This document shows, one piece after another, positions 1 through 18,100 of a DNA stretch of 20,046 nt; position 1 is the stretch's first letter, and every line of letters begins with the position of its first letter. Source of the stretch: an uncultured archaeon (GTDB lineage: Archaea; Asgardarchaeota; Thorarchaeia; Thorarchaeales; Thorarchaeaceae); assembly GCA_964648855.1 (NCBI GenBank), contig CAZYLT010000028.1, forward strand, positions 1-20,046, written 5' to 3'. A program made the position numbers and the translations under genes. Below the pieces are notes generated by a model. The model saw nothing but the letters and a program-made list of their open reading frames with translations, was not told the DNA's origin and searched no databases.

Positions 1-61
1 GTAACGGTAGCATAGGGGATTGTGGACGTCACTTTCTGCGGCAAAACTCCCCTGACGCGGG
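1..61 (+). pseudogene. Partial tRNA-His(GUG) copy with a 21-nt BHB intron; 5' end cut by the window edge, 3' end truncated after the 5' strand of the T-stem
   Basis: Positions 1-25 and 47-61 match the exons of the complete tRNA-His (10161 to 10101, minus strand) at 40/40 nt. Anticodon GTG is at 22-24 and the intron at 26-46. After GCGGG (57-61) the sequence reads GATACTC instead of TTCAACT, so there is no T-loop or acceptor 3' strand. Confidence 0.88.
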
Positions 62-298
62 GATACTCTCTTTGAGGTCATAATGATTAAGGATTTTTTC
101 CAACTCCGGATTGTAAATCTGGTTATTACCACTCTTTACTCTTAATGTCTAATGAGTATTAACTATCTTTAAATTCACAACAAGCATGCATTTGCATAAG
201 ACTACTCCGTCCATTCCAGTCTGTCTCCATTCAGTTTGAAACAAAAGACGCTGAGGAGGAACATGTAGTCGTAAAATATGAAAAAGGAGCAATAGCAA

Positions 299-496
299 AT
301 GCCACTTGAGAAAATCGATGAAGGATTGAATACATTGAAGGCTGTATTGAGCACTTTGGACAGGTTTAATGCTGATAATCTTGTTTCTTTAAAGGAAAAA
401 GATGAGAAGCTTTACGGAGATGTGATGCTACGAATTGAAACCGCAATAGAAGTAATAAACGGAATTATCAAAGATATGCATGATAATCGAAGATAA
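299..496 (+). CDS. Small hypothetical protein (65 aa, predicted helical)
   Basis: ATG start with AAGGAG just upstream; amphipathic helical composition; no recognisable motif. Confidence 0.6.
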   Translation: MPLEKIDEGLNTLKAVLSTLDRFNADNLVSLKEKDEKLYGDVMLRIETAIEVINGIIKDMHDNRR

Positions 497-702
497 TCAA
501 AATAGATTGTGCTTTGGAAAGGGCAAGGTCAATTGCAAATATGATTCCACTGACAAAGTGAATCCAATCAGCGATAACATCGAATCTCGTTCTAAACGAA
601 GAGGTGTCTTTCCTTGGAGTTGATTTTAGCACAATTTATGAAGAACTTTTTAAGAGCAGTTTCGGACTGTGCTATAGCATTCTGGGTAGGAGCTGTTTGG
701 AA

Positions 703-1656
703 ATGGATAACTTCGATTGGCTGAAAGACAAAGTTGAGAATCTCGCGGGAGTGAAAGAAGAAATAGCGGACCTGTGTGAGAAGGGTGAGTACATAACATA
801 CGACAAGGGGCTTTGGGCATTCTGGAAGCTGCTCATTCATTCCTATTATGTGGACATATTCACTCTAATCACGAAGAAGCGTATGAACAATGTAGTATAC
901 ATCGATCTATTGGCAGGACCCGGCTTTAATTATTTGGCGGATATCAATCTCACTGTGGCAGGCTCACCACTGATTGCAAAGTTGCAGCCCAGAGTAACAA
1001 AAGACGGAAAATCAAAAGCCTTTGATGAAATGATTCTTGTGGACTCTGACAGACGTAATTGCGCAAGCCTCGAAAGAGTATTGAATGAGAGAGTAATTTG
1101 TGCGGACTGCAATTCGTCTGAAGTAATGTCAGCCATTGAAGATGCAATGAAGCCAAGAAAGTCCATATATCTAGCATTTATAGATCCCGAGGGGGTGGAA
1201 GAAGTCCATTGGAATACAATGATGAATCTTTTCAAAATGCCAGGCGACCTAATAATTAATTATCCATGGTCTGGAGCTGCGCGACTAGTAGGAAGCTATC
1301 GCCATACTTCAGGTAGTACCAAAGAAAACATCGGACTGCTAATTGACAAATTCTTTGGAGATGAAACGTGGAGGAATGTTCCAGAGGACTCAGTAGCTGA
1401 TTGGCTCAATGATTTCTATTTAAAGCGTGTAAGAAGATATCGAAGTGAGATTGTCGAATTTCCTATAATGATGATTGGTGGGGCACAGTATCGTATACTA
1501 ATTGCGACACGCCAAACAGAATCAGGTTCGCCTTGGCTCAAGCCGGTTTACCGACTTAGGAATCACCATCTTAACAGGTTGACCGACGAGGACCTAAAAC
1601 GTCTCGTTGAAATTTACAAAGGAGATCAAACAACCCTTGATGAATTCTGCAGCTGA
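703..1656 (+). CDS. tcmP: Three-Cys-motif partner protein TcmP-like SAM-dependent methyltransferase
   Basis: Family-type motifs W..wKL...Y, YIDLLAGPG (SAM-binding), GSPL, ADCN, AFIDPEG, DLIINYP, FFG...W and Y.ILIAT. The ORF is open from 604, but ATG 703 follows a TAGGAG RBS. Adjacent to a three-Cys radical-SAM gene. Confidence 0.85.
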   Translation: MDNFDWLKDKVENLAGVKEEIADLCEKGEYITYDKGLWAFWKLLIHSYYVDIFTLITKKRMNNVVYIDLLAGPGFNYLADINLTVAGSPLIAKLQPRVTKDGKSKAFDEMILVDSDRRNCASLERVLNERVICADCNSSEVMSAIEDAMKPRKSIYLAFIDPEGVEEVHWNTMMNLFKMPGDLIINYPWSGAARLVGSYRHTSGSTKENIGLLIDKFFGDETWRNVPEDSVADWLNDFYLKRVRRYRSEIVEFPIMMIGGAQYRILIATRQTESGSPWLKPVYRLRNHHLNRLTDEDLKRLVEIYKGDQTTLDEFCS

Positions 1657-1718
1657 ATACAAAGAGTCTATAATTTCATACCGTGTGGTTCATAATAGTA
1701 CGTGAAAACAAATAGGAG

Positions 1719-2789
1719 ATGCGTCTGATGGACCTAGTGGAAAAAGGGAATGCCCTAAAGGCAAATGAATTAATCCGACAGAAAGAAGGCCAATCAATAC
1801 GAGTTATAGATTTGATTCAAGACGAGAATATTGTTATTGATGTAAATAGTCTTGTTAAGGCACTCAAAGAGCTAGAGCGACAAGGCGATATCTACATCGA
1901 GAGGCACCCAAGGTTAGAGAACGGAATTATCAGAAAGGATATCCGTTCCTCGGATATTGTTTATTTCAATTGTTTTCCATCTATAGATAGAAAGTCCCTG
2001 CTGTATCAGACGAAGGTGGAGTATGGCGATTATACTATAAATCACATTCTTGGATGCGCGCATGGATGCCAATACCCTTGTTATGCCATGAATATCTCCA
2101 AGAGATGGGGGCGCATATCTGATTATGAAGACTGGATGCATCCCCGAGTTGTAGGAAATGCCCTCGATTTATTGGAAAGAGAATTACCACGGTTGAATGG
2201 TGATATCCAATTTGTCCACATGTCATTTATGACCGATCCGTTCATGTTCGATGCACCAAACAATCGGAATTTTCCTTGGATTCAAAATCTCACACTCGAG
2301 TTGGTTGAGAGAATAAACCAGGAAGCGATTAAAGTTACAACTCTGACAAAGGGGCTTTCTCCTATTGAGCTGACAGCCGGTCGTTTCGACAAAGAAAATG
2401 AATATGGCATAACGCTTGTTTCATTGAGTGACGAATTTCATGCTCAATTTGAGCCATTCTCTGCTGAGCCATTGGCCCGCATCCAAGCACTTGAGAGATT
2501 GCATCAGAATGGATTGAAGACCTGGGTTAGCTTAGAACCATATCCTACTCCAAATATAATTGAGCAGGAACTCTCTGACATCCTTGCTGAAGTGGCATTT
2601 GTGGATAAAATTGTATTCGGAAAGTGGAATTACAATGCATTGATTAATGGACATCCAGATGCAGAGAAATTTTACGTGGAGGGGGCGGGGGAGATCATTC
2701 GATTTGCAAAAGAGAATGGTATCGACTATCATATCAAAGAGGGAACGCCCCGAAATTCAGCGGAAACGGAGAAATTGTTCCTATCATAG
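1719..2789 (+). CDS. Radical SAM protein (SplB-like/three-Cys-motif type) with N-terminal winged-helix-like extension
   Basis: GCAHGCQYPCYA Cys triad (Cys codons 2055, 2067, 2079; Cx3Cx3C spacing), SFMTDPF, LTKG, GITLVS, FEP...P..RI.AL, and TWVSLEP, all typical of SplB-like radical SAM enzymes. Confidence 0.85.
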   Translation: MRLMDLVEKGNALKANELIRQKEGQSIRVIDLIQDENIVIDVNSLVKALKELERQGDIYIERHPRLENGIIRKDIRSSDIVYFNCFPSIDRKSLLYQTKVEYGDYTINHILGCAHGCQYPCYAMNISKRWGRISDYEDWMHPRVVGNALDLLERELPRLNGDIQFVHMSFMTDPFMFDAPNNRNFPWIQNLTLELVERINQEAIKVTTLTKGLSPIELTAGRFDKENEYGITLVSLSDEFHAQFEPFSAEPLARIQALERLHQNGLKTWVSLEPYPTPNIIEQELSDILAEVAFVDKIVFGKWNYNALINGHPDAEKFYVEGAGEIIRFAKENGIDYHIKEGTPRNSAETEKLFLS

Positions 2790-2805
2790 CGGGCAAATGC
2801 TTATG

Positions 2806-5800
2806 TTAGCAGTATTCCTCCTCATATAATGAAAGGCCTCTGTCCTCAATTATTTTACCAACCTCGTCACTAATACACTCTAAATCCCAATTAGAGATGG
2901 TGAGGTGACCTATTCGATGGTCAATCTCTTCCCAGATGGAATTGGACACAACATCCCCCTCTCGTATATGCCGGCTGAGATCTTCAACAATGACAAAGTC
3001 ATCGTAGTTGTCCTGTTCTGCTTGTAGGGCTAATCTCACAATAATCCTAACTAGCCCTCGTCTTCCGACCTTGATGTGAGAGCATAGAAACACTAGGTTT
3101 TCATCAGTACCCCACCCATCTTTAGATTCATCAAGTTCAGGGTCGTACTCGTACTCATCGTCAAGCTCTTTCGTCAGGATTCTGCCTTGAATGGCTGCGT
3201 TAAATCGCTTATACTCTGAAACATCTGGAATCTTGGAAAGGTCAATATCGCCTAATCCTATATCTACTGGATGGCATAACCCCCTCCTACTATCAACAAG
3301 TTGCTTGCAGTCTGCGAGAAGAACGACATCGTATATATGCATAAATTTCCGCTCGAACTGCTTGAAAGGAGAGTTTTCCTCCAACTCTCTGAACTCGATT
3401 CGGAATCGCTTGAATCTGCGTCGTTCAGCAAGAAACTTTTCTTCCTGAATCATCAAGGTGCATCGTGGCCCCTCCTGCATATCTAAGAGTTCTTCGCACG
3501 TTTCAGGAAGTGAGAGAATTTCAGGATAGAAACTGGACCTCTGAACGAACGGTTTCAGAAACGACATATTGATTATAGGTATCTTGTCTTCGCTCTTGAT
3601 TTCAAGGTCGGGGTACACGACATCAGTGACATGGCTCCACACCATCCTCACCCCGTCTGCACTTGATGGGAATTTCCCAGTCCTGAAGGGAGCTCTAATG
3701 TATTCGATAACCTCTTGGGTATATTCTGTTTCAATCCCAATGTATGACTGATTTCCAGCTCTATGCATTACCCGATACACTTCTCTCTCATCGTCAATGG
3801 TGATGTAGCAGTCAACATGTTCAGATTCCACTTCAAACGAAGAGATCTCTCTCAGTAAGTCAACCACTCGTTCATCAGGGTTGTCGGGTAGCTGAACATT
3901 TTCTGGTCTTCTAATAGATAACATAACCTCCTGGGGTGGCCAGGTGATTCTGATCCAGCGAATGGGCACGAACATTCCTTTGGAAGGAAATCCATACTGT
4001 AGCATTCCAAGAATTTGCCATTCATTATCCTCCGCATCCTGCATCCACAGGATTGATTCACCAAGTACTCTCGTTAAGATAATAGGCGTACTCTCATGGT
4101 TCATTAGTGCCTTTTCAGCCTTGGATGCTAGTTCACTCGGGTCAATAACGCAGGGATGAAATCCTGTCCTCAAATGCATGCTTTCTTGATCGGTCAGAAG
4201 GGCAGCTTTCAGAGAGAAGTCTTCTTCAGAGGGCAGAAAAACCCACAGGTCTAGCGGGTAGCTCGGTTCTATACTCAAAATTGCACCAACTTGGTAGTCC
4301 ATTCTTTGGACTAACACATTGCTCGGTTGTGACTGAAGTTGTCTTGCTCGCCACTCCAAATTTGAGTACAGTGCCCTGAAATTGTACACTGATTGTACTC
4401 TGTTGCGTTCTCTTCTTACCGCCTCAAATCCCATTTGTATCGGTATCCAATAAGAAATAGAGTTCCATAGTTTTGCAGTTCTTGGATCAAATGGATGGTC
4501 GAAGTTGTTCCGAGCAGCCACATAAACGGCGAGAAATAGGTTCATTCCGTATAATTGCAGCAGTTGGGGATTCTTGGCTATCGCATCCCTTAGGTTCTTT
4601 TTATTTATGGGATTGAGATTCTGTAGCACCTCTTCTTTTTGCTCATCAATCAGTCGCCATGTCTTTGCTCGGTCATCTCTTTTGAGAATCTCAGCCCTGA
4701 TTTTTTGAAGTGCTTGAAGAAGTACATCAGATGTGCTATTTCCCGATAAAACGCGATTGCATGTCTTCATTATCTTGTGCAAATCAACGTAGAGGTCGTC
4801 GCCCGTGCTCACGGATTTTCGAAGAAATCCCGCAGCCTTCTCTAGTCTTCCAAGCTCCTTTCTTCTGATTATGGTCGAGTCTATAGTGCTGGGAGCCGTG
4901 ACGCCTGTTGGAGGTGGACGAATCGTGGTTCCCGTCACATTTTCTGGACGCCTCTGGTATGACGGCATCGTATCATAAGCCCAAGGACGACTGACAAGGT
5001 CTAGTGAATAGATGTCTTTCTGAGAATGCAATGTTATTGGCATCAACTCATTTTGGACAAGTGTCAATCGCGTTGTAAGTGGCACAGGAGAACCCGGATT
5101 TGATAACGAAGAGATTTCATTCAGGTATTCTGGCAGTTTAGATGAGTGGTCTTTGTTGCTTTCCTGTTGGAAACCCCTGTCAAGACTTGGAAGGAGAGTC
5201 ATAGCGCTTTCTTCCAACTTTTCGCAATCAGAAATCGTGGGAGGAATCATGTTGGAGAGTGTGACCAACCGCCCGTGCATTGTCTGGCTTTTTGTTTGAA
5301 GTTCTGCTAACTCGGAAGTACTCAAAGCGCCTCCCCAATCCTTCAGACCTCTGAACTTACGACCCCATGCCTTCAGACATGGTACATGGATTGCGGTCCG
5401 CCATGGCGGAATAGGGGAGGCGATTTCTTGCACAATCACTCTTATGTCAGAATGTCTAGGGGAACGCCATCCAAATATTCGTGGACTTGTAGGAAGATTC
5501 CAGATTATCTCATCTACTTGCTCCAGCCTAGGCGAGTTGTGATGAAGAGCTTTCGCGCAGCTCCTTTGATAATACGGATTCATTCTATTGTGGTTCCTGG
5601 GTGAATCAATCCAGATTATCTCAATATTCTGATTTGGAAGAACAGAGAGAATCAGTTTCTCAAGAGCTATAGGAACATCCTCCGGTTTCTTTGGCATCAT
5701 CCTTCGAAATTCAGTCCAACCGTCAATGACAAAGATTATGCCGCTTTCATCATGGAAAGAAGCTTGAATTTTTCCAATGAAGTTCCTTAATCCCTCATCA

Positions 5801-7878
5801 ACTCTGCCCGAAACAATTTTGTTGATTTCTGTTTCAAGTGGGAAGAACTCGATACTATCAAGAGTGGCTATCGAAGCGTTTCTTTTTTTCTGGGATAATT
5901 CACCTCTATGATACATTGCTTCAATGCCCATTCTCTTTTTCCGTAGATGCTTTGTGGAGAAATCTCCGAGCAAATCAAGCCAAACAACTCTATGGATGTG
6001 CTGTGAGTGTTCAAGACACTCTTGCAGATGATGGAGAAGGTGCCAGTTCTTCGAAATCCACGCCGCTGCTTTACCAGATGAAGTTGGAGAATCCACCGGC
6101 ACATATACCGTTAATAGCCGTTCATCAGAGATTCGCTTCTCGAAAGGATTATATTCAGGTAGTTGATCAGGTGGAATACATTCGGCGATTAGGTGATGTG
6201 GGCCTTCATTAGAATGCACTAACATAGCAATTCGTGGAGAATTGCTCGTCGCATTTTTCGGTTTCTTCAATCCCACTCTCTTCCAATGGTAGACATCATG
6301 GTTCAAGGTGGCGAGTTCGTCACACAACTGAGAAACCAGTATTTGTGCTGCATCAAAGACCTTCTTGTGATCTTCTTGCGAATCCAGAATCAGTACTCCT
6401 TTCCAGAGCTTTTCAGGAGCTTTAGGGTCGCTTGGCACGAGGTTTTTGTATTCCTGAACTATGTTCTGTTCATACAAGACCAACTGGTCCATCGTGTTGC
6501 CCCGAGGTAGGGAGTTCTCAAGCATATTCCATTCGTGAGCTGTGAACGGCCGCTTGCATGCAAAGAATTCGGGAAGATAGTCGTTACCGCTTCTAGATTT
6601 AGTCGAAAAAAGAGCGAAGTCAATCGAGGTCTTGGTCTTCAGTTCGATCACCATTATGGGCGTAAATACGATTCCCTTTGCGACCTCCCGTCGTACGAAG
6701 ATGACAATGTCTGAAGATCCCCCAGCAATTGGCACCTCGCTGGCAACTAGAATCGGGGACTTGGTGTCCAGAAATTTGTCGCCAGCAAAAACAATCTCTT
6801 TGAAACTGGTAGGTCTGTTGAATCCAGAGAGTAGTATTCTGTGCCACGTATTCCCCTCTCCCACGATGATTCTATTGATTTGTTCTCGTAGCTTCTCCGC
6901 ATCCCTCTCCACAACTATACCGTTGTCAATCATATCTAGGAGTTGACCCAACTTCTTTCGTTCTTCTTTGTCGGTTGTGATGTTTCGCAAATCAATTGCC
7001 TTGCTTCGGATATCGCCGATACTAAGCGAAATTGACTCAGCATCGAGCAGTTCGGTGGTACGCATTCCGCGACCAATTCGCCGACCATAGATGGTTCGAA
7101 TATCCAGAACAATCCCTCGCAGTATCTTATGTCCTTCAGTGTAATAGTCACTACGTCCAGTCTCACCGCCTGTATAGACGTAGTCCAAAAAGGGACGCAG
7201 TCGGTGGATGAGAAGGCGAATGTACCGATGCGATTCGTTTCTGGGAACACTATGGATGAAGCACTGGCGGACTAGTTCAATGATATGAGCACGAATCATG
7301 TCCACGAATTCCAGAGATGGAAGAGAAGAGTGCCTCAAGATGATTCTCGGGCATTTTGAGTTTCCTGGATACCCTGCTCTCCAGTATGATTTGATTGAAT
7401 CGTCATCCGGCACCGCATTAGCCATGCTTTCAGTGAGAACTTTCCTAGAGTCATCAGCGTATACTCGTATTTGATAGAGCAATGGGTCCGGAAATGGGTA
7501 GCGAGTGACAGCAAGGTCACGCAATCGAGCACCGGCAAAATTCAGTAGACCATTAATCGGTCCAACGGTCCCCTCTTCCCAGTTCCGAACTCTCTTGAAT
7601 TCCGTATTCCCGTATTTTCTTGTTGACCACCACAGGATCTGAAGATACATAGACCGCAGATTGTTCTCAGCAGATTGTATTGGCCATATGTCATGTTGAG
7701 TGAAGGACTGTATGTCATTGGCTCTTGTCTGTGCCTTTTTCCATAGACGCTGTGTAGCCTCTACAGCACTCCGTACCTCTTTCTGTCTAGAGGCTCTTGC
7801 TCTAGCCAGGCGAACAAGGACAGCCAATCCTGTATGGATTGAATCTGCTAGCACCTGCGCAGCATGAAAACCTCCCAT
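2806..7878 (-). CDS. Giant hypothetical protein (1690 aa): PD-(D/E)xK nuclease motif, degenerate P-loop NTPase-like region, long acidic C-terminal module
   Basis: Uninterrupted 5-kb ORF with an AGGTGG RBS and TTATAA upstream. SEVPIAGGSSD...VIELKTK...DQLVLY (6472-6738) matches the RecB-like nuclease pattern. SPTSSGK (6070-6090) and IIFVIDG (5719-5739) resemble Walker A and Walker B. Confidence 0.85.
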   Translation of the reverse strand: MGGFHAAQVLADSIHTGLAVLVRLARARASRQKEVRSAVEATQRLWKKAQTRANDIQSFTQHDIWPIQSAENNLRSMYLQILWWSTRKYGNTEFKRVRNWEEGTVGPINGLLNFAGARLRDLAVTRYPFPDPLLYQIRVYADDSRKVLTESMANAVPDDDSIKSYWRAGYPGNSKCPRIILRHSSLPSLEFVDMIRAHIIELVRQCFIHSVPRNESHRYIRLLIHRLRPFLDYVYTGGETGRSDYYTEGHKILRGIVLDIRTIYGRRIGRGMRTTELLDAESISLSIGDIRSKAIDLRNITTDKEERKKLGQLLDMIDNGIVVERDAEKLREQINRIIVGEGNTWHRILLSGFNRPTSFKEIVFAGDKFLDTKSPILVASEVPIAGGSSDIVIFVRREVAKGIVFTPIMVIELKTKTSIDFALFSTKSRSGNDYLPEFFACKRPFTAHEWNMLENSLPRGNTMDQLVLYEQNIVQEYKNLVPSDPKAPEKLWKGVLILDSQEDHKKVFDAAQILVSQLCDELATLNHDVYHWKRVGLKKPKNATSNSPRIAMLVHSNEGPHHLIAECIPPDQLPEYNPFEKRISDERLLTVYVPVDSPTSSGKAAAWISKNWHLLHHLQECLEHSQHIHRVVWLDLLGDFSTKHLRKKRMGIEAMYHRGELSQKKRNASIATLDSIEFFPLETEINKIVSGRVDEGLRNFIGKIQASFHDESGIIFVIDGWTEFRRMMPKKPEDVPIALEKLILSVLPNQNIEIIWIDSPRNHNRMNPYYQRSCAKALHHNSPRLEQVDEIIWNLPTSPRIFGWRSPRHSDIRVIVQEIASPIPPWRTAIHVPCLKAWGRKFRGLKDWGGALSTSELAELQTKSQTMHGRLVTLSNMIPPTISDCEKLEESAMTLLPSLDRGFQQESNKDHSSKLPEYLNEISSLSNPGSPVPLTTRLTLVQNELMPITLHSQKDIYSLDLVSRPWAYDTMPSYQRRPENVTGTTIRPPPTGVTAPSTIDSTIIRRKELGRLEKAAGFLRKSVSTGDDLYVDLHKIMKTCNRVLSGNSTSDVLLQALQKIRAEILKRDDRAKTWRLIDEQKEEVLQNLNPINKKNLRDAIAKNPQLLQLYGMNLFLAVYVAARNNFDHPFDPRTAKLWNSISYWIPIQMGFEAVRRERNRVQSVYNFRALYSNLEWRARQLQSQPSNVLVQRMDYQVGAILSIEPSYPLDLWVFLPSEEDFSLKAALLTDQESMHLRTGFHPCVIDPSELASKAEKALMNHESTPIILTRVLGESILWMQDAEDNEWQILGMLQYGFPSKGMFVPIRWIRITWPPQEVMLSIRRPENVQLPDNPDERVVDLLREISSFEVESEHVDCYITIDDEREVYRVMHRAGNQSYIGIETEYTQEVIEYIRAPFRTGKFPSSADGVRMVWSHVTDVVYPDLEIKSEDKIPIINMSFLKPFVQRSSFYPEILSLPETCEELLDMQEGPRCTLMIQEEKFLAERRRFKRFRIEFRELEENSPFKQFERKFMHIYDVVLLADCKQLVDSRRGLCHPVDIGLGDIDLSKIPDVSEYKRFNAAIQGRILTKELDDEYEYDPELDESKDGWGTDENLVFLCSHIKVGRRGLVRIIVRLALQAEQDNYDDFVIVEDLSRHIREGDVVSNSIWEEIDHRIGHLTISNWDLECISDEVGKIIEDRGLSLYEEEYC

Positions 7879-7901
7879 TCCACCTAAATTGTCAAATCCA
7901 C

Positions 7902-7910
7902 TTATAAGTT
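7902..7910 (-). promoter_or_regulatory. Putative archaeal BRE/TATA box for the giant gene
   Basis: Minus strand reads AACTTATAA about 25-30 nt upstream of the ATG at 7878. Confidence 0.5.
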
Positions 7911-8003
7911 GTACCGGAGTGAATCAAATATATAATAAGCATTATGGGGCTTTTTTTCTTCATTTAGAAGTCTAATAGTGCTTTATTTCAATAATTGCTT
8001 AAT

Positions 8004-8112
8004 AACCTTAAATACTGCAGTACATACAATTGTACGAGTTCAAAACCCCCTGTCGGTATGGATATGGGAGTGAACTCAGCTGACCGAGACAGGTCAGAAC
8101 CTTAAATACTGC
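8004..8112 (+). repeat. 15-bp direct repeat AACCTTAAATACTGC (8004-8018 and 8098-8112), each copy containing a BRE/TATA-like box
   Basis: Exact match read directly from the sequence; 79 bp between the copies. Confidence 0.85.
8036..8097 (+). ncRNA. Candidate structured small RNA or 5' leader upstream of tnpB
   Basis: Stem GAGTTCA (8036-8042)/TGAACTC (8071-8077) encloses an inner stem, followed by hairpin CTGACC-GAGACA-GGTCAG (8080-8097). It begins 28 nt after the first TTAAATA box, where an archaeal start site is expected. Confidence 0.4.
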
Positions 8113-8118
8113 TAGGCG

Positions 8119-9792
8119 TTGAAGATGAACAAAACCGACACCGTGAACATTGCTGTTAAGATCCCCATCAACACTGAAGTAATGACTGATAGGTCGTTGC
8201 GGAGGTTGAGGCAAATCACGGGAAGGGACAGCAGGATCATCCGTGCGAACCTTGGAATCATCGAGGACAATGAGAAGGACCTTCTTCAAGGGGGGCCTAG
8301 GAAACGCATTGAGGAGAATAGGCTGCGAGAAATGACACTAACTGCCTTGAGAGTGAAGAGTGGCTACAAGCAGAGGTTGACTGTTCCCCATGACTTGAAG
8401 GAACGTTTCCCACGTACTTCAACCAATGAGCTTGACCAGTGTCGCAAGACTGCAGTCATGTTGTACGATGCATATCTGACATTGCGACAGAGGAATCCAA
8501 GGATGAGGAGACCGTGCAAGACAAATCCTGACGGCAAAATTCCCCGTTGGGTTTTTCTTAAGTGCTTCAGGTTGAAACATTCACCCACTACGATATCTCG
8601 GTGGTGGCTTGATTTACGAGACGCTCTCGATTCTGTTCCAGAAGGCAGACCCACACACGACCGATTGAGACTTCCCCTGAAAGTCACTCCATTCCATGAG
8701 GATCAACTCAATAGGGGAGAAGTGAAGGCCGTCCAGATCTTCTGTGATAGGCATGGCAAGTGGTGGACTGCCTTCGCCGTGACACTATTGGTAGCAGTGC
8801 ACGATTTGAAGGATGACTTACCCTTTGCCATACTTGGTATCGATCTCGGGGTGAAGAAAGCAGTCTGTAGTGTTCTCCTCACAGAGCACAAAGTGTCCGA
8901 AACAAGATACTTCATCCAAAAGGAAAAGCGGGACTCAATGATGCAGTATGATGCCAGAGTTGCCGACCTACAGCAGGCAATAGAGAAGAAGAGAATCAGT
9001 GGAGATGAGGGCAGGCTTCTTATGAAGCTCAAGAGTTTCAGAACAAAACGGGAAGATGTATCCAAGACCCATGATCGTATTCTGGTCAGCAACCTAATCT
9101 CATACATAGGGGAACTCGACCAGAAGTGCAATCTCTTTGTTGCCATCGGGAAGCTCAAGGGGATTCGTTATGCTGCAAGAAGAGGCAACTACCGAGGTAA
9201 TCGCTACCGTGGCATGGTACATAGATGGTCTTACTTCCGGATCACAGAAGCCTTGAAGCACGGACTCGCACAACTTGGCTGGCCGGTTGAAGGAGGCAAG
9301 GCACGAATCCGAGCGGTGCCTGAACAATGGACCTCAATCAAATGCTGGAAGTGTGGACAGAAGGGATATCGCCCGAAGCAGTCCCTCTTTGTCTGCCACA
9401 CGTGTGGCTTTAGAACCAACGCCGACCGAAATGGTGCGCTTAACATAGCGCGCCGACTCATTACGCTCATTCCTTTACTACAGAATGAGACCGGACTAGG
9501 GCGGTGGGTGTCCCCCGAGCGGGCCCCAGCCCCGAAGGCTGTAAGGAAGACTCGTTCTTCTAAGCAGAAGTCCTCACTCAACAAGATGGAAGTTTCGTCA
9601 ACCTCCGTTGAGTCCGCGGCCGTTCATCATGTCCAATTGGATGTTCTCAGATTCAGTGATGGCTCTGAGATGGATGATTATGACCCTGCCGTGGCAAAAG
9701 CTGTGGAAACACTTCCTGCGGCCAGAAGTGACGAGCTGGCGAAATCGCAGAAGACAGAAGCCAGGTCTGATGGAGGGACGGTGTCCCGATGA
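8119..9792 (+). CDS. tnpB: TnpB-family RNA-guided endonuclease with rearranged RuvC-II and C-terminal extension (557 aa from TTG 8119; ATG 8125 or GTG 8143 also possible)
   Basis: RuvC-I ILGIDLG (D242); RuvC-II strand LFVAIGKL with G344 at the usual Glu position; WSY motif; VPEQWTS (E402); Zn finger CWKC...CHTC; RuvC-III NADRNGALNI (D436). Confidence 0.93.
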   Translation: MKMNKTDTVNIAVKIPINTEVMTDRSLRRLRQITGRDSRIIRANLGIIEDNEKDLLQGGPRKRIEENRLREMTLTALRVKSGYKQRLTVPHDLKERFPRTSTNELDQCRKTAVMLYDAYLTLRQRNPRMRRPCKTNPDGKIPRWVFLKCFRLKHSPTTISRWWLDLRDALDSVPEGRPTHDRLRLPLKVTPFHEDQLNRGEVKAVQIFCDRHGKWWTAFAVTLLVAVHDLKDDLPFAILGIDLGVKKAVCSVLLTEHKVSETRYFIQKEKRDSMMQYDARVADLQQAIEKKRISGDEGRLLMKLKSFRTKREDVSKTHDRILVSNLISYIGELDQKCNLFVAIGKLKGIRYAARRGNYRGNRYRGMVHRWSYFRITEALKHGLAQLGWPVEGGKARIRAVPEQWTSIKCWKCGQKGYRPKQSLFVCHTCGFRTNADRNGALNIARRLITLIPLLQNETGLGRWVSPERAPAPKAVRKTRSSKQKSSLNKMEVSSTSVESAAVHHVQLDVLRFSDGSEMDDYDPAVAKAVETLPAARSDELAKSQKTEARSDGGTVSR

Positions 9793-10070
9793 TTCCAGAC
9801 AAAGCCCATGCTGCCTCATGCCCACCCAGTATGAGATCGGTGGCGACACCAGGTATGGGAAGGGTGGAACACAGAAGTTTCTTGCAGATGACGTTCACTC
9901 ACATTCTAGGAGACAGGTCAGGGCGCGGGAATCGAACCAAATGTATTGTGAAGAAATGGAGAATTCAATATACTGCAGCAAGGCGAGAGGACGTAGGGAA
10001 CACAATGCGATTGCGGAACCCACATGATTTTCTTATTCATGAGGAGGATATCTTTCTTAATTCTATAAAG
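9766..10070 (+). ncRNA. Putative omegaRNA (reRNA) scaffold plus guide; boundaries approximate
   Basis: Dense stems around the tnpB stop: CCCATGCT/GGTATGGG (9805-9859), CTCATGC/GTATGAG (9815-9835) and GGTG-GCGA-CACC with a GNRA loop (9839-9850). Possible pseudoknot CCACCC (9822-9827)/GGGTGG (9862-9867). Terminal hairpin at 10020-10044. TnpB omegaRNAs are known to lie at this position. Confidence 0.65.
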
Positions 10071-10077
10071 GAACAGA

Positions 10078-10173
10078 TGGGGCCCGGGGCGGGAGTTGAA
10101 CCCGCGTCAGGGGAGGTCTGCCGCCAAGAATGGCGTCCACAATCCCCTATGCTACCGTTACACCACCCAGGCC
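10078..10173 (-). tRNA. tRNA-His(GUG) with encoded G-1, C73 and CCA, and a 21-nt intron at 37/38 (10116-10136)
   Basis: Full cloverleaf: acceptor GCCTGGG/CCCGGGC, anticodon stem GGGGA/TCCCC, anticodon 10138-10140, T-arm GCGGG-TTCAACT-CCCGC. BHB motif: TTGT pairs with GCAG, two 3-nt bulges, intron hairpin CGCCA-TTCT-TGGCG. Confidence 0.97.
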
Positions 10174-10276
10174 ATGGTTTGGTGGGTAGCATTTCATCGC
10201 ACAACCGATTGAACTTATTAGCTTATCCATATTCCTACTCTATGAAGCCAACCAATCACAACAGCGAGGTTATTAT

Positions 10277-11926
10277 TTGAAGACTTCCATCCAGAAAAAA
10301 GAACTCGGCGCGTACTACACAGATCCCCGAGTGGCGGAGTTCTTGGTTCGCTGGGCGGTGAGAACCCCCAATGACAGAATACTCGACCCTTCTTTTGGAG
10401 AGGGTGTCTTTCTGGAAGCGGCTCTAAATGTAATGGGAGAATCTAAGGAGGTTGGGGAGCAGATTTATGGTGTCGAAATAGATGACTCGGAATATGATAG
10501 GGCGATAGAGAAATTCTCTGAATGGATTCCAGAAGAAAATCTCATTCACTCCGATTTCTTTGAAGTGATAGGGGGCGAGAATCATGGAACACTCGCTGAA
10601 ACTCAAGTGCCCGCTGTAGATGCGGTAGTTGGAAATCCTCCTTACATAAGGTATCACAGATGGAAAGGGAAGACTCGGAAAAGAGCGCAGGAAAAGGCCG
10701 AAACTCTAGGCGTTGAAATCAACGGGTTGAGCTCATCGTGGGCTCCCTTTGTGGTGTATTCCACTTCATTCCTTAAAAAGGGTGGACGCCTGGCCATGGT
10801 ATTACCCGCCGAAATCATGCATGCCTTCTACGCGAAACCGGTATTGGAGTACTTACATCAGACATTCAAGTTAGTGCGTCTGATTGCATTTCGCGAGAAG
10901 CTTTTCAGCCAGTTGTCAGAAGACACCTTGCTGATTCTCTGTGATGAAAAGGGTTGTGGGCCTTCTGAGATGTTCTTGACAGAGCTGCAAAACGTCTCAA
11001 AGATAGACGAGGAAATACCGACTGGGACCTCAGTTGAGTCGAAGTCCGTATTGGCTGGCGAGTCAAAGCTGATTGAGTATCTTCTGCCTGACAAGATCCG
11101 CCAGCTCTATTCGAGAATAAAGCAGGATGCACGTTCAGTCAAGCTCGGCGACATTGCTGATGTCGGTATTGGATACGTCACAGGGAATAATGATTTCTTC
11201 CACCTCTCACGATCTGAAGTAGAAGCCTTAGGGATCCCTGAAGAAGCGCTTTCAAGATGCCTTAGAAATAGTAGGCACATCCAAGGCCTTGTTGTAACAG
11301 ATGATGATTGGGAAAAGCTGAGAAACAAGGGTGAGGCCGTATTCCTGCTCAATCTGGCAGGTCTCGAGCCTCTGGCTGATGCAATTGAGGAGTATCTAAG
11401 AACTGGAGAAGAACGTGGTGTCCATCAAGGGTACAAGTGTAGAAATCGCAAGCCTTGGTATGTAGTTCCTCATGTCTACAAGTCTGATGGACTTCTCACC
11501 TATATGAGTGGAAAACGGTCAAGGCTCGTAGTCAATAAGGCTGGCATCTATGTTCCGAATACTTTGCATACTGTAAGACTTAGAGAACCGCATAATGACA
11601 TTATGCTTCAGCTTTCTCTTAGTTGGCTCAGCAGTTTCACAAGACTTAGTGTTGAAATAGAGGGCCGGAGCTTAGGGGGAGGTATGTTAAAACTTGAACC
11701 AAGTGAAGCTCAGAGGGTTCTGGTGACACTGCCGGAGCTGGCACCAAAGCCATTGAATAACACTACAAACAAAATAGACCATCTTCTTCGTGACAATAAA
11801 TGGACTGAAGCCATGTTAGTCGCAGACCATGCGGTTCTTCGGCAAACCCTGGGATTGGATGATGAAGAAATACAATTGCTAAGGCAAGGGGCTAAGGAGC
11901 TTCGAGAGAAGCGATATTCTCGTTAA
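10277..11926 (+). CDS. N6-adenine DNA methyltransferase, gamma class (type II restriction-modification)
   Basis: GAYYTD, motif I LDPSFGEGVF preceding motif IV VGNPPY, LKKGGRLAMVLP, and a C-terminal TRD with KCRNRKPWY and EGRSLGGGMLKLEP. Confidence 0.92.
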   Translation: MKTSIQKKELGAYYTDPRVAEFLVRWAVRTPNDRILDPSFGEGVFLEAALNVMGESKEVGEQIYGVEIDDSEYDRAIEKFSEWIPEENLIHSDFFEVIGGENHGTLAETQVPAVDAVVGNPPYIRYHRWKGKTRKRAQEKAETLGVEINGLSSSWAPFVVYSTSFLKKGGRLAMVLPAEIMHAFYAKPVLEYLHQTFKLVRLIAFREKLFSQLSEDTLLILCDEKGCGPSEMFLTELQNVSKIDEEIPTGTSVESKSVLAGESKLIEYLLPDKIRQLYSRIKQDARSVKLGDIADVGIGYVTGNNDFFHLSRSEVEALGIPEEALSRCLRNSRHIQGLVVTDDDWEKLRNKGEAVFLLNLAGLEPLADAIEEYLRTGEERGVHQGYKCRNRKPWYVVPHVYKSDGLLTYMSGKRSRLVVNKAGIYVPNTLHTVRLREPHNDIMLQLSLSWLSSFTRLSVEIEGRSLGGGMLKLEPSEAQRVLVTLPELAPKPLNNTTNKIDHLLRDNKWTEAMLVADHAVLRQTLGLDDEEIQLLRQGAKELREKRYSR

Positions 11927-11948
11927 TCTCTGGTTCCGAGTGTTGTGA

Positions 11949-12827
11949 TTATTCATACTTTTCGTCATATTGCGCCGCAATTGTTTCTAGTGCGTTTTCG
12001 TACCGGACAGCTTCATATTTTTTATCTTTGAAAACCAAGGGGTCTTCCAATCTCGGGCGGTCAATATTGTCAAGATGACAAAATTGAATCGCGAATCCAT
12101 CGTAACCACCACCGCTTAACTGCTTAATAGGCACGTCTTGGATAATAATGTCTAGTGTCTTCTCGGGTTCGTCGGGCTTATTCCTAGATATCATTGTTTC
12201 GGGTAATGCTGGGTCTTCAACGAATTCTCTTATCTTCTCGTTGCCCGTACCAATCATTCCCTCCAATTCTTTGAGATTGAATTTCGATTCAGAACAGAGA
12301 TGCGATAATACGTCCCGGGCTCTGATAAATGTTTCATAATTCAAGAACTTATCTGCAGTTCCGATAATAAAAGTCCCTACAAGAAGCACATGTCTGTGTT
12401 GGCCATCTCTCACTGCTTCGGCTAGATCAGCGAGAATTCTAGTTCTATTGTATACATTTCTATGAGCAGTTATCAGGCTCTTGTTTTCCATGATCAAACG
12501 AATGTCCTTCGGTTCGGACTCTCGGATTCGTTGAAATCCCTGATTCTTTGGATCGATACTAGTCTGTTGTGATGAATCTTCTCTTGTTCCCAGAACCAAG
12601 TCTAGGACATGTTGCCTTCCGCCGAGGCCAAGCCGATGGTTTACCTTGTAACAGATAGTTCCAGCATCAACATCAGACTTGAAGATTGAACTCACATGAT
12701 ACAAATCCCTGAGGAATTCCTTGCTAAGGTAATCAGAATGAAATCCGGTTCTTGGATGGTGTATTCTCTCTCTTTCTAGATAGCTGACCAGTCGCTCAAA
12801 TGCGGTCCTATTTAGTCCGATATTCAA
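11949..12827 (-). CDS. Putative type II restriction endonuclease (PD-(D/E)xK fold)
   Basis: HVLDLVLG...IRLIMENKS catalytic-type motif; convergent with the methyltransferase, 22 bp between the stop codons. Confidence 0.7.
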   Translation of the reverse strand: MNIGLNRTAFERLVSYLERERIHHPRTGFHSDYLSKEFLRDLYHVSSIFKSDVDAGTICYKVNHRLGLGGRQHVLDLVLGTREDSSQQTSIDPKNQGFQRIRESEPKDIRLIMENKSLITAHRNVYNRTRILADLAEAVRDGQHRHVLLVGTFIIGTADKFLNYETFIRARDVLSHLCSESKFNLKELEGMIGTGNEKIREFVEDPALPETMISRNKPDEPEKTLDIIIQDVPIKQLSGGGYDGFAIQFCHLDNIDRPRLEDPLVFKDKKYEAVRYENALETIAAQYDEKYE

Positions 12828-13040
12828 TACTAACTAACCATTGCAATCAGTAGCAATACACGGTAATAATTCTTTATCAGTCTACAAAACTACAATCGAG
12901 AGCTAAAAAATCATTGCACAATAGAGCAATTGTATTTTCCATGCAAGTTAGGTGCGGGGAGATATGCCAAATAAAATAGCCTGCATTCCAAATTCCAAGA
13001 GGCGACCTGATAACCGTTATTCTTATCTTAACAACAGTCA

Positions 13041-14261
13041 TTGGAAACACTAAGCAAAGGTAGGAAGGCGCCAGTATTGGTTGACTTGGAAAAGGGAGAA
13101 GGTATATGGAATTTCATAGAAATTGATGACAGTAAAATAGAAACAGACATCAGCTCCAACCCTCTAAAGTATATCGATAAACTTACCGAAAAATTGGATG
13201 GGGCTGATTTGGAAACAGTCGGCAAAGGAGTCATATCAGGCAACAAACTAAGAATTGCTTCAGGCGTTGAGGAGATATATAACCAAAGTCCGGACAGATT
13301 CATGACATTGGTTTGCATTATGGAGTTTGTAAATCGAAAACCCAAGGCGGTCTATGAAATAGCGGAGGAGGCATTCGCCAAAAAGGGGCAACCGAATATA
13401 AGCGACAATGGGCCAATCGCCCATGCATATAAATTATATGAGAAAGACCCGAAACTGCTTTTCGATGTCTATCTGAGAAATCAAGTGATCAGAAAAGGAT
13501 TTGATAGCTACAAACTGATAAGCAAGAAAAAGTCGTTCCCGCAACACCCTCTGCAGAAAATAGATGAGAATAGAATCAATACCTTTCTCAAAGATGTAGA
13601 CTCGCAGTTCAATGATGGTCTAGAAAGCAAATGCTGGCATGTTTCACATTATGGAAGTACAACTGAAGTGTACCTTAGAAGACAAGATGAACCGATTCTA
13701 CTGAAGAAACTTCTAAGAAATATTCGCCAAACCATGGCAAGTTCGACAATTCTACGCTTTGACAAACACGGCCGGAATGTAGACCTTTGGTCAGAGAAGC
13801 ATTCGGTCGCGGAAAAGCTACTTAATCATCTTTCTAAGAAGATTTTTGAGAAAGATGCAAAATATGAGCCAGAAGTATACAGAAACAGTAAAGCCGATGT
13901 TAAAAATTGGCTTGGAGCAATAATGCATGGTCAGGATAGTGACATGAAACTACTCAAAATAAAGAGGAGAAATGCTCCAATCAAAGGCAGTCCAAAAATA
14001 ACCATAGAATCATCAAGGTCGATTCATGTTTCATTGAACTCGTTGAAACAAGCTGGTATTGATCTTAGCAAAGATTGCGCTACTGAAACAGAGGAGATTA
14101 GCATTGAGTACAAATCAACCAAGTATTTATTTGGATTAAGAATCAGCAATGGGTCCATTGTTGTTTATAGCAAGAGACAAAGAGGGACAAAGAAAGCAAT
14201 GGAATCGATTATCACATATTTGAAAAAAGAATATAGCATCAAGATATCACTGAGCAACTGA
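13041..14261 (+). CDS. Hypothetical protein (406 aa, Lys-rich), first gene of a two-gene operon
   Basis: Long ORF in AT-rich DNA, 5 bp upstream of the next gene; no catalytic motif recognised. Confidence 0.8.
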   Translation: METLSKGRKAPVLVDLEKGEGIWNFIEIDDSKIETDISSNPLKYIDKLTEKLDGADLETVGKGVISGNKLRIASGVEEIYNQSPDRFMTLVCIMEFVNRKPKAVYEIAEEAFAKKGQPNISDNGPIAHAYKLYEKDPKLLFDVYLRNQVIRKGFDSYKLISKKKSFPQHPLQKIDENRINTFLKDVDSQFNDGLESKCWHVSHYGSTTEVYLRRQDEPILLKKLLRNIRQTMASSTILRFDKHGRNVDLWSEKHSVAEKLLNHLSKKIFEKDAKYEPEVYRNSKADVKNWLGAIMHGQDSDMKLLKIKRRNAPIKGSPKITIESSRSIHVSLNSLKQAGIDLSKDCATETEEISIEYKSTKYLFGLRISNGSIVVYSKRQRGTKKAMESIITYLKKEYSIKISLSN

Positions 14262-14266
14262 TCATA

Positions 14267-15394
14267 TTGCTACCAAATGGCTATATTGTTTATCCTGATA
14301 ATGATTATGCGCTAGAGAGATGCAAAGTTCTTTGCAGGTTGGGATTAGCTGATGCCTTGGAACAAGAAGTTGTCAGTTGTGTAAATCATAGGGATTGGGA
14401 TTATGATACCCTTTCTACTGAAGAAAAGCGATGTTCTTCATGGATATTCGTCAGTTCATTTGAAGAGGGTTCGGCGGTATGTGAAGAATGTGGACGAAAA
14501 ATAAATCGGAAAGAGAAGAAGAACAAATACAAGGCTTGGGAGGTAAGCCTAAATCTTGATAAAATCTCAAAATACATTGTGGAGAGGCTGAAACCGGAGG
14601 TAGACCACATAGAGGAGAGAGAATACTCATGGGAAATTCTACTTAATCGAAGGCATTCATTTCTTGTACTTATTGGATATATGCCAATACAGTTCAATCA
14701 GGATTATTTGTTTGGAAACGTAGGGAATACTATTGGATTGGCAATTTCTGACTATGAATATAACCAGTTCATTCAATCCTTTCCGTTACAACCAGCCATA
14801 ACCCTGCAGAATCTGATTCAAGATCCTAAATCAGTCATTCGGCTGATTAACGCATCTTTCACTGAACAGCCCAGAAAACTAGAGGTGGATTCATGCAAAG
14901 ATCTTCTGCTTTCATTTGCTAGCTCGTTCAACTCATCAGGCTCTGATTTCGAAAATCTCTGCCTTGAACTCGAAAGGAATATTCGCGACAATAAACAAGG
15001 AATGGAGCAAATTCTCAACCAGCTCAAATTGAAGCAAGCGATATCATACAGAGTCCTGCATCTAGGTGGCTCTGGAATGCCAGATTTGCTGCGGATACCG
15101 CTCTTCCCCTATTTCAGAGATTACTTTACTCATAGCGGTGTTATAGAGTCCAAGCAGTATCTGCAGAGCAAACTTAGGCCGACACATCTCGGACAAGCAA
15201 TACGACATGCAAGGCATTATGGCCAGAAGAGAATTCTCATCTACGCTCTGACAGAGGATGTTGCTCCAAGTGTGTGGAGTGATGTCCTTAGCGTCAGAGA
15301 AGCTGATGGGGGATTTCTCAATATCGTGATGGATACTACATTTATTGCATACTTGATAGTGGCTTTTGATTTGGTTGAAACTATGTTGACCTAA
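14267..15394 (+). CDS. Zn-ribbon plus C-terminal Mrr-like restriction endonuclease domain protein (375 aa)
   Basis: Cys cluster SCVNH...RCS...VCEECG; C-terminal DFENLC...LGGSGMPDLL...VIESKQY...HLGQ fits the Mrr/type IV pattern FE...G..PD...ExK. Confidence 0.78.
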   Translation: MLPNGYIVYPDNDYALERCKVLCRLGLADALEQEVVSCVNHRDWDYDTLSTEEKRCSSWIFVSSFEEGSAVCEECGRKINRKEKKNKYKAWEVSLNLDKISKYIVERLKPEVDHIEEREYSWEILLNRRHSFLVLIGYMPIQFNQDYLFGNVGNTIGLAISDYEYNQFIQSFPLQPAITLQNLIQDPKSVIRLINASFTEQPRKLEVDSCKDLLLSFASSFNSSGSDFENLCLELERNIRDNKQGMEQILNQLKLKQAISYRVLHLGGSGMPDLLRIPLFPYFRDYFTHSGVIESKQYLQSKLRPTHLGQAIRHARHYGQKRILIYALTEDVAPSVWSDVLSVREADGGFLNIVMDTTFIAYLIVAFDLVETMLT

Positions 15395-15401
15395 TGGCGA
15401 T

Positions 15402-15716: not shown

Positions 15717-16090
15717 GAAAGCAACACCTTACAAATAGAACAAAGAATTGGAGGAATTTAGTTGTTTTCCTGCAGAAGCTGTCTTCTCGTATGCTCTTGA
15801 TACAATTATAATTAGCATAAGGCACATCGCCCGCCCCGGGCCCTTTACTTCAATATATATTTCATTAACATTTCACTTCGGGCCATAAAGAGGACTTGCA
15901 CTCCGAACTTCACTCATCCAATACTTTCAGAATTTATTTCTAACGGTTCAATGTGATATCTGCTGGTCGAGCCAAATGTAGTATCTTTATCCAAGCCAGA
16001 GTGGCTTATATACGAGGAATGAGTGAAAGTCACCCCCATAAGAAACGACCATCCCTTAATTAGAGAAAAAGGAATGTGAGGGCGAAGTAA

Positions 16091-18099: not shown

Positions 18100-18100
18100 G

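Follow-up and report, generated by a model that had tools for sequence, protein, structure and literature searches.

The tRNA-His locus described here is, in the reading that we favour and hold to be somewhat probable from its sequence, the scar of a mobile element of the aCas1-TnpB type that targets tRNA genes: the resident gene would have been broken under RNA guidance and replaced by a resistant allele. The window (the whole stretch of DNA analysed, 20,046 nucleotides) is an entire contig, C28, of a thorarchaeal genome. Below, this genome is referred to as G000 and that of its sister species as G001; other G numbers denote further genomes of the comparison. The features of the window are the following.

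1–61, + strand: left tRNA-His copy, read as the dead 5′ remnant of the host's original gene (nt 12–53, intron 26–46; promoter and nt 1–11 on contig C46)
62–78, + strand: possible, weakly supported remnant of a second, 53/54 intron, resembling the 53/54 intron of the G093 tRNA-His
604–1656, + strand: cargo gene, TcmP (three-Cys-motif partner; TIGR04474, 72 bits, cut-off 53)
1719–2789, + strand: cargo gene, radical SAM (weak PF04055 and NF033668 matches, below cut-off)
2806–7878, − strand: aCas1 fusion, 1690 aa, with a Cas1 helical catalytic domain (~1–250), a Cas4-like nuclease (weak), a RecA-superfamily ATPase (~585–880) and a C-terminus without assignment
8030–8118, + strand: upstream RNA element, presumably tracr-like; it contains a copy of the end motif as well as a segment complementary to the scaffold motif that lies downstream
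8119–9792, + strand: TnpB nuclease (NF040570, PF07282)
9793–9920, + strand: 3′ RNA scaffold with the end motif of the element; conserved among 109 TnpB ends
9921–9938, + strand: putative guide, antisense to tRNA-His nt 52–69, directly after the TnpB RNA end
10081–10173, − strand: replacement tRNA-His, complete, with G-1 and a 37/38 intron at 10116–10136 (Rfam, ARAGORN)
10207–10230, − strand: promoter block of the replacement tRNA-His
10277–11926, + strand: type II N6-adenine methyltransferase (PADLOC MTase_II, E 5e-126)
11949–15716: further cargo, four ORFs without family matches
15830–15843, + strand: tRNA-His 3′ piece of 14 nt (nt 61–74), in the orientation opposite to that of the complete copy; it marks the right border of the locus
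16091–17605, + strand: stand-alone copy of the C-terminal 500 aa of aCas1 (59% identity), probably a relic of an earlier element

A remnant of the N6-adenine methyltransferase gene is also found upstream of tRNA-His in G001 and G018, and the start of a 104-aa cargo ORF also adjoins the tRNA-His 3′ piece in G036.

The two copies of the tRNA-His gene

The exons of the two copies, window 1–61 (+) and 10161–10101 (−), are identical at 40/40 positions, while their 21-nt introns differ at 7 positions and each form a canonical bulge-helix-bulge at 37/38 (a 4-bp central helix with anticodon-loop nt 32–35, and two 3-nt bulges). These observations of an earlier sequence-only reading are reproduced by direct comparison, as is the end of the likeness between the copies at G53. 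The resemblance of 62–78 to an intron of G093 (p about 0.005 in one comparison out of three) is weakly suggestive of a remnant of a 53/54 intron, which would give an alternative reason for the left copy to stop there.

The right copy scores 49.6 bits with Rfam and is found by ARAGORN when introns are allowed (no tRNA gene is detected without that option); it is the sole complete tRNA-His in the 3.1-Mb genome. Contig C46 shares a 55-nt overlap with C28, an assembler k-mer break, and continues it leftwards. The left copy thus has its own promoter and its own 5′ acceptor strand, which is altered at nt 5 and 7; these are two of the elements that the sequence-only reading had proposed to look for left of position 1. 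A 24-nt promoter block is identical in both copies. That of the left copy, on C46, adjoins the usual neighbour genes of tRNA-His. Judged by this synteny and by the leader sequences, the left partial copy is the original gene of the host, now dead, whereas the inverted copy, which is complete, came in later. The earlier proposal that the left piece had come in from another lineage is therefore turned around, although its other half, that there was no recent local duplication, holds, and the two copies are different alleles.

Position 7 is G in 29/29 complete tRNA-His genes, but C in both left copies. The 14-nt 3′ piece, whose sequence occurs twice in the whole genome and has a degenerate counterpart in G001, carries C66, which indicates that it does not derive from the C7 allele, a point against the mechanism proposed below. 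The intron alleles and nt 5 are crossed between G000 and G001, while the leaders follow position, and a past exchange between the two copies is therefore likely on this pattern. Searching JGI metagenomes gave no exact match to the intron-bearing 5′ exon, which does not imply its absence.

At its local junctions, the layout does not result from misassembly. Public unitigs hold 1–2170 in three runs and are unbroken over 9281–10146 (X1) or 6317–10146 (X3), which shows that the local junctions are not chimeric; a strain in which 55–9316 is deleted accounts for the break of the contig. None of the RNA runs searched contains the locus.

The aCas1 fusion, TnpB and the putative guide

The sequence-only reading overlooked both the nature of the giant gene and the piece of tRNA-His that occupies the guide position of TnpB. 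Sequence searches of the giant protein (Pfam, NCBIfam, PADLOC, PDB sequences, Atlas) gave no identity, and folds alone named it: in a comparison with 48,161 chains, the best 12 are all Cas1 or casposase (Z 9.0–12.5, next 5.7). The catalytic domain aligns with Cas1 over 176–195 residues (rmsd 3.8–4.0, best Z 12.5), with Glu71, His183 and Asp193 invariant; the match of this domain by Foldseek alone is below significance. By its fold, the product of the giant ORF is thus a fusion protein of the Asgard Cas1 (aCas1) type, and TnpB is its partner. Homologues are present in 56/86 genomes of the family, where the elements are multi-copy and sit at many tRNA loci; no relatives were found in viral contigs, which does not imply that there are none.

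TnpB (NF040570, E 1e-19) is followed by the published conserved downstream motif, at 9893, and its translation has the RuvC catalytic triad (RuvC-I Asp, relocated Glu, RuvC-III Asp); the nuclease is apparently active. The motifs of the upstream RNA element lie at 8066–8075 and 8086–8096, and its duplex with the scaffold amounts to −51.5 kcal/mol, a raw value with no null comparison; the scaffold (9800–9945) folds no better than shuffled sequences (z 0.69). A sigma-70 promoter scan returned chance-level numbers, the model not being applicable to archaea. Conservation among the 109 TnpB ends falls off past the end motif, and in the window it is followed by the 18-nt piece antisense to the T-arm region of tRNA-His. 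The far end of this piece is G52/53, where the left copy stops, and it contains G66, the complement of C7 in the left copy. The complete allele lies 146 nt beyond it, inverted and with its own promoter. On the other hand, 30 guide targets show no common motif upstream that could be a shared TAM, which counts against guided cutting, and neither a terminal inverted repeat nor a clear target-site duplication was found at the locus.

Comparison across genomes and tRNA families

Inward-facing tRNA-His pairs were seen in six genomes, which belong to three genera (G000, G001, G022, G066, G036 and G093, that of G022 being based on a 22-nt overlap of two contigs), and aCas1 and/or TnpB lies between the copies in 6/6; the same-contig direct pairs of G075, G082 and G002 have neither in the DNA examined. 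The three-part layout (5′ piece, complete copy, 3′ piece) is shown for G000, G001, G036 and G093. All five inward pairs with TnpB have a His-derived piece directly behind the end motif, three registers being represented among them, and in both antisense cases the host remnant ends 1–2 nt from the far end of the guide (53 vs 52 in G000, 37 vs 39 in G093). These genomes are related, so that counts of genomes overstate independence.

Family-wide, 39/109 TnpB ends match a tRNA at a score of at least 12, against 3.1% of random windows; the other 70/109 have no match in the tRNA set compared, which is incomplete and His-rich. Of 35 tRNA matches, 30 begin between −1 and +2 nt relative to the end motif. 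Detached pieces share a length of 13–19 nt, and the same piece precedes different downstream DNA in several genomes. At two loci (His in G066, Asp in G008), two units, each a repeat plus a tRNA piece, are aimed at two alleles. Several apparent pieces turned out to be other multi-intron tRNA genes and were dropped.

A split host gene together with an inverted complete copy is also seen at Arg, Asp, Tyr and Ala. The complete tRNAs adjacent to guides mismatch them in all cases compared: four tRNA-Tyr copies have a compensatory acceptor swap within the guide target, and two tRNA-Pro copies have an intron within it. It counts against this reading that the total mismatches of the His replacements are not extreme, as 4–89% of other alleles match the guide better. 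For Ala, Arg, Asp and Pro, the piece is in several loci the abutting half of the broken gene, which means that flank retention alone can yield such pieces.

Proposed mechanism and alternative explanations

In the mechanism that we propose, the 18-nt antisense piece would be the guide of TnpB and would have matched the old tRNA-His allele (C7:G66), which TnpB would have cut at the far end of the match, G52/53. The break may then have been healed by homology-independent joining, probably via aCas1, leaving the element and its cargo in inverted order, either by an inverted insertion or by an insertion at nt 69/70 followed by an inversion from 53/54. The cell would survive because the incoming allele (G7:C66, with a different T-loop) mismatches the guide. 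This mode of action would resemble that of a cleave-and-rescue system or an intronless homing system.

The alternative that deserves most attention, which we nevertheless consider unlikely, involves no guided cutting: aCas1 would insert at tRNA genes by protein–DNA recognition, like a casposase, the tRNA piece would be a leftover of the target, and the second tRNA would have arrived by ordinary gene transfer, followed by inversions and deletions. Casposases do target the T-arm of tRNA genes without RNA, with a duplication of 14–15 bp (PMC5137440), the 3′ piece here has 14 nt, half a tRNA lies immediately next to several elements, and no TAM was seen. However, passive retention of the flank leaves unexplained the short detached pieces and their recurrence before differing downstream DNA, as well as the two-spacer mini-arrays, the recoded Tyr acceptor and the Pro introns that split the target. 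The idea of the sequence-only reading that the 10-kb segment is invertible, recombination between the copies switching the locus that makes tRNA-His, is a distant prospect, even though the copies share inverted identical blocks of 32, 24 and 15 nt, the crossed alleles of G000 and G001 are what two crossovers or gene conversion would give, and a crossover within the 32-nt block is not visible in k=31 unitigs. Searches of the genome (95% complete) turned up neither a tyrosine nor a serine recombinase: PF00589 has no match even at E 5, with controls at 14/14, and PF00239 has none. No joint between the copies is present in four runs, the orientation is the same in G001, and a flip within the gene would bring the left acceptor strand together with the right 3′ strand, with mismatches at 5:68 and 7:66 in the only tRNA-His.

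Even less credit goes to a classical integrase island with a 5′-half attachment site (of the pTN3 type or following the Caldiarchaeum tRNA-Thr model) that would have been inverted afterwards and would carry aCas1-TnpB as a passenger. Such 5′-half sites with element-supplied promoters are known (PMC8371274; PMC3293823), and a direct 5′ piece with a full gene exists in G075, G082 and G002, but PF00589 has no match in G000, G001, G036 or G093, and these models predict direct repeats. Here no direct attachment repeats restoring the host gene were found, both partial copies being inverted relative to the complete gene, and the inversion accompanies aCas1/TnpB in every inward pair. We attach hardly any probability to a tRNA trans-spliced from the 5′ and 3′ pieces: both are on the + strand and the former has a promoter, but the T-loop (nt 54–60) is missing, the acceptor would have the same two mismatches, 89% of random controls pair better than the flanks do and the break points vary among genomes; with an incomplete cloverleaf and flanks that do not pair, this possibility was rejected. 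An artefact of assembly or binning has an equally negligible chance. The left copy is at the start of a contig and strain variation is present, but the overlap with C46, the unitigs of three runs and the same layout within one contig of the sister species refute it for the local junctions, and with it the chimeric contig end that the sequence-only reading had considered.

Relation to known systems

By description, the locus resembles Cas1H-Asgard-1 and -2, the Asgard aCas1-associated TnpB loci proposed to be a transposon flanked by repeats (Altae-Tran et al. 2023, PMC10691335, which cites Makarova et al. 2020): the aCas1 and TnpB genes are divergent and a conserved motif lies downstream of tnpB. 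That article places a possible guide upstream of the motif, whereas here the variable tRNA-derived segment follows the end motif, and broken host genes and replacement tRNAs accompany the element. The word tRNA has 0 occurrences in it, and the literature searched gave no description of tRNA targeting by aCas1-TnpB elements, although Makarova et al. 2020 may mention tRNA sites.

Like casposons, the element combines a putative Cas1-family integrase with a location at tRNA genes, and its 14-nt 3′ piece is about the size of their target duplication, but inverted relative to the complete gene. Unlike them, it has no PolB (no ORF in 62–15829 matches a protein-primed family B polymerase in Pfam or NCBIfam) and no terminal inverted repeats were found (the window holds no inverted copy of the end motif); TnpB is present, the host tRNA is destroyed rather than kept, and Cas1, which lacks the N-terminal beta domain, is part of a fusion with nuclease and ATPase domains. 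With TnpB-omegaRNA homing in IS200/IS605 and IS607 (PMC13565253), it shares a putative guide of about 16 nt right after the element end, which is sometimes plain flank, and the RuvC residues; here, however, the window ORFs include neither TnpA (Y1) nor a serine recombinase, the targets are essential tRNAs, the guides may stand apart from the flank and in arrays, and a rescue allele travels along. In the homing of CAST I-F and V-K by delocalized crRNA (PMC11656645), a short guide directs a mobile element to tRNA loci, as is proposed here, but the present locus has no Tn7 genes, the nuclease appears to be active and the gene is broken instead of receiving an insertion beside it. The pTN3-type and Caldiarchaeum cases also have a 5′ tRNA fragment with the host promoter, next to a full gene whose intron set differs; their direct repeats are made by a recombinase, whereas in the present locus the copy is inverted and the searches gave no recombinase.

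Implications

For aCas1-TnpB loci, previously described only as putative transposons, this analysis proposes a concrete tRNA target and a life cycle. It may be, and we advance this more tentatively than the reading of the locus itself, that Thorarchaeota harbour a natural cleave-and-rescue drive on essential tRNA genes, in which an active TnpB with tRNA-derived guides (some in mini-arrays) destroys the resident alleles, and the element, integrated by the Cas1-Cas4-RecA fusion, brings along a tRNA allele that is recoded or protected by an intron. If the guides direct the Cas1-family integrase, this would be RNA-guided integration unrelated to Tn7, intermediate between casposons, TnpB and CRISPR adaptation.

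No general route of tRNA intron gain in Asgard archaea was found in a 2026 preprint (10.64898/2026.10.13.758758), where mobile elements were scored by homology to hallmark proteins and by published elements. Such scoring could miss aCas1, which has no Pfam match. Here, the intron alleles move with the replacement genes and some introns lie within the guide targets, which bears on that question. Should the cleave-and-rescue reading be true, the element would count as a Cas1-family transposon guided by RNA, and it would act as a selective cause of the turnover of tRNA alleles and of intron gain in Asgard archaea.

Organization of the tRNA-His locus

The locus consists, in order, of a 5' remnant (+), cargo, a complete copy (-), cargo and a 3' piece (+) of tRNA-His:

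1-61 (+), left copy, the 5' remnant, ending at G53
2806-7878 (-), aCas1, a 1690-aa Asgard Cas1 fusion
8119-9792 (+), TnpB nuclease gene
9916-9920, end motif after TnpB
9921-9938, putative guide, 18 nt antisense to tRNA-His nt 52-69
10081-10173 (-), right copy, complete
13041-15394, pair of coupled, AT-rich ORFs (406 and 375 aa)
15402-15716, 104-aa protein
15830-15843 (+), 3' piece, nt 61-74
16091-17605, intact stand-alone copy of the C-terminal 500 aa of aCas1

The right copy is the sole complete tRNA-His of the source genome (G000; 3.11 Mb, 95% complete), in which the 14-mer of the 3' piece occurs twice; the window is all of contig C28. Its tRNA set, rich in introns, and its aCas1-TnpB family suggest a member of the Thorarchaeota. 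The sequence-only reading described the two copies correctly: 1-61 (+) and 10161-10101 (-) agree at 40/40 exon positions, and their 21-nt introns differ at 7 positions and both form a canonical 37/38 BHB. It also called for a search leftwards: contig C46 overlaps the window start by 55 nt, a type of overlap that is common in this assembly, and supplies the acceptor 5' strand and the promoter of the left copy. Nucleotides 1-11 are present there, altered at nt 5 and 7, and the two promoters have an identical 24-nt block in common. At 62-78 there may be the beginning of a 53/54 intron similar to the one in genome G093 (p about 0.005), which would be a weak alternative reason for the stop at G53. 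In several genera, tRNA-His has non-canonical introns, located at 53/54 or within the T-loop (loci L038, L050, L122, L125, L130).

The feature is real and not an assembly artefact. Unitigs from public runs span 1-2170 (three runs) and 9281-10146 without breaks, contrary to what a chimeric assembly would give. In one run, 55 is joined directly to 9316. This deletion resembles that of the sister species (G001), and the contig starts at this point because of it. In G001 a single contig contains the same inward-facing pair. Its two copies are separated by about 770 nt that include a 3' remnant of tnpB; a remnant of a methyltransferase gene lies upstream of the complete one, and the 3' piece precedes a 504-aa gene.

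Host gene and newcomer

In other genera, the single tRNA-His promoter adjoins homologues of two C46 genes, which in G000 lie towards the left remnant. Intact genes in the genus of G093 have nearly the same leader as the 5' remnant of G093, and the inverted complete copies in G093 and G036 resemble each other in their leaders. This synteny and this likeness of leaders therefore argue that the host gene is the remnant, and that the complete copy is the newcomer. The idea that one copy came in from elsewhere is thus retained, with the roles exchanged: the incoming copy would be the complete inverted one, not the partial left one. Between G000 and G001 the leaders track position, but the alleles at nt 5 and at three columns of the intron are crossed between copies, which points to a past exchange between copies or strains.

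The block from mid-C46 to just before the genes of contig C10 (window 17836-20046 with C10) appears inverted in this genus relative to others. In genome G018, two contigs carry one tRNA-His gene each (L036 10055-10481; L037 4844-4917), and upstream of one of these genes lies a remnant of the same methyltransferase as the window locus (62% identity).

A flip of the 10-kb segment by recombination between the copies had also been proposed. Inverted identical blocks of 32, 24 and 15 nt could recombine, but the unitigs contain no joint linking the copies (they would not reveal a crossover within the 32-nt block), and searches of G000 (95% complete) yielded neither a tyrosine nor a serine recombinase. 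A crossover inside the gene would leave mismatches 5:68 and 7:66 in the only tRNA-His. Two runs contain a minor joint (depth 6 and 5.4) that links 9921 to 15843 on opposite strands and was placed at 88% likeness. A related strain with an inversion between the 14-nt piece and the 3' end of the complete copy would produce such a joint, which may also come from another organism.

aCas1, TnpB and cargo

Family searches give no match for the 1690-aa ORF, whose homologues occur in 56 of the 86 genomes of the family, often several in each, and usually divergent from a TnpB gene. The predicted structure of residues 1-330 (pLDDT 89) matches Cas1: the best 12 rows of the structure search are all Cas1 or casposase chains (Z 9.0-12.5, the next 5.7), and Glu71, His183 and Asp193 are invariant. 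A region matching RecA-superfamily ATPases (residues about 585-880) is preceded by a weak Cas4 match (Z 7.6). TnpB keeps its RuvC triad, with the Glu relocated. The gene arrangement is that of the aCas1-TnpB loci listed as a putative transposon, with a conserved downstream motif (PMC10691335) that is found here at 9893.

G001 has lost the full aCas1 by deletion and keeps the stand-alone C-terminal copy (84% conserved), which may be a domesticated or regulatory module. The 406- and 375-aa ORFs, near a methyltransferase and a 292-aa ORF, have no family match and are candidate defence genes. The 104-aa protein belongs to an archaeal and viral family without a name (Atlas 0.93), present in 25/86 genomes; in G036 the start of its gene also adjoins the tRNA-His 3' piece.

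tRNA-derived pieces after the TnpB end

The antisense piece directly follows the end motif, beyond which conservation falls. A His piece occupies this position in 5/5 inverted His loci with a TnpB end, in three registers. A tRNA match scoring at least 12 is present at 39 of 109 distinct TnpB ends, versus 3.1% of random windows and 13 in a downstream control window, the latter mostly where a whole tRNA gene follows; 30 of 35 anchored matches begin -1 to +2 nt from the motif. G066 and G008 carry two repeat-plus-piece units aimed at two alleles. These two-unit mini-arrays (end-motif repeat plus tRNA-derived spacer), with a different allele matched per unit, lie at L121 (near 900-1000) and L254 (near 2940-3000).

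In some elements the tRNA piece is that half of the broken gene which adjoins the element; this is the same logic as in IS605 TnpB, whose flank serves as guide (PMC13565253). One and the same tRNA piece also precedes unrelated DNA in different genomes. We consider a passive flank model rather unlikely.

The break point was compared with the end of the putative guide. Cleavage by TnpB enzymes falls about 15-21 nt from the TAM, where the guide match ends on its far side. This far end is G52 in G000, where the remnant ends at G53, and 39 in G093, where the host remnant ends at 37; no shared TAM is visible at the tRNA targets. Position 7 is G in 29/29 complete tRNA-His genes collected and C in both left copies, and the putative guide carries G66, which would pair with C7 and mismatch the replacement allele. 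The remnant and the guide piece thus describe one allele, C7:G66, from which the replacement differs at guide position 4 and at two T-loop positions. The 3' piece has C66 and is of the other allele type.

In two TnpB subgroups the motif is followed, in many genomes, by a constant non-tRNA sequence (L115, L116, L120, L175, L237; also L242, L244, L245, L248, L255 and G000 contigs C4, C16, C19, C52), and G000 has no clear second site for it. The target of some guides may be a tRNA promoter or flank, because a recurrent piece (L193, L205, L218) matches G000:C4:107783, about 140 nt upstream of tRNA-Leu(TAG). A multi-copy IS-like family of G000 (C1, C2, C6, C8, C11, C31, C34, C45) has the TnpB 3' scaffold in common and another conserved end, without tRNA piece.

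Recurrence at other tRNA genes

Halves of tRNA-His (5') occur in 49/86 genomes, with at least two copies in 11. Inward-facing pairs are found in G000, G001, G022, G066, G036 and G093 (three genera), and in every case the copies enclose aCas1 and/or TnpB. Neither gene occurs in the regions examined for the direct pairs of G075, G082 and G002. G036 and G093 also contain the 3' piece, in host orientation. Split host genes with an inverted complete copy recur at other tRNAs:

tRNA-Arg: G071, G083
tRNA-Asp: G036, G005, G086
tRNA-Tyr: G017
tRNA-Ala: G026

Split-gene loci with a direct complete copy involve tRNA-Asp, Pro, Leu and Gly. A further aCas1-TnpB element of G000 (C21:12210-22187) abuts tRNA-Gly, carries Mre11/Rad50-like genes and terminates in a direct 3' tRNA-Gly repeat, without integrase. 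Minimal cassettes (L268, L269, L270) consist of a complete tRNA gene, TnpB and a tRNA-derived piece, without aCas1; that of L268 has an 89-nt direct repeat, intron included.

Mismatched replacements and proposed mechanism

None of the adjacent complete tRNA genes matches its putative guide perfectly. What would be resistance is clearest in four tRNA-Tyr copies whose acceptor carries a compensatory swap within the target, the target itself matching the standard Tyr allele, and in two tRNA-Pro copies whose intron at 21/22 lies within the target. All His replacements mismatch at guide positions 2-4; resistance is suggestive only for His, because 4-89% of other alleles match the guide better overall.

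Makarova 2020 aside, our literature search found no paper joining aCas1-TnpB elements to tRNA targeting. The analysis establishes the anatomy of the locus, the protein folds, the recurrence and the constant position of the tRNA-derived pieces; that these pieces act as guides, that TnpB cuts, what aCas1 does, that the replacements resist and in which order the events took place are inferred. We favor, with some reserve, the reading that the locus is the scar of such an element, in which TnpB, guided by RNA, would break the host tRNA gene, aCas1 possibly taking part, and the element would bring a mismatched replacement tRNA gene.
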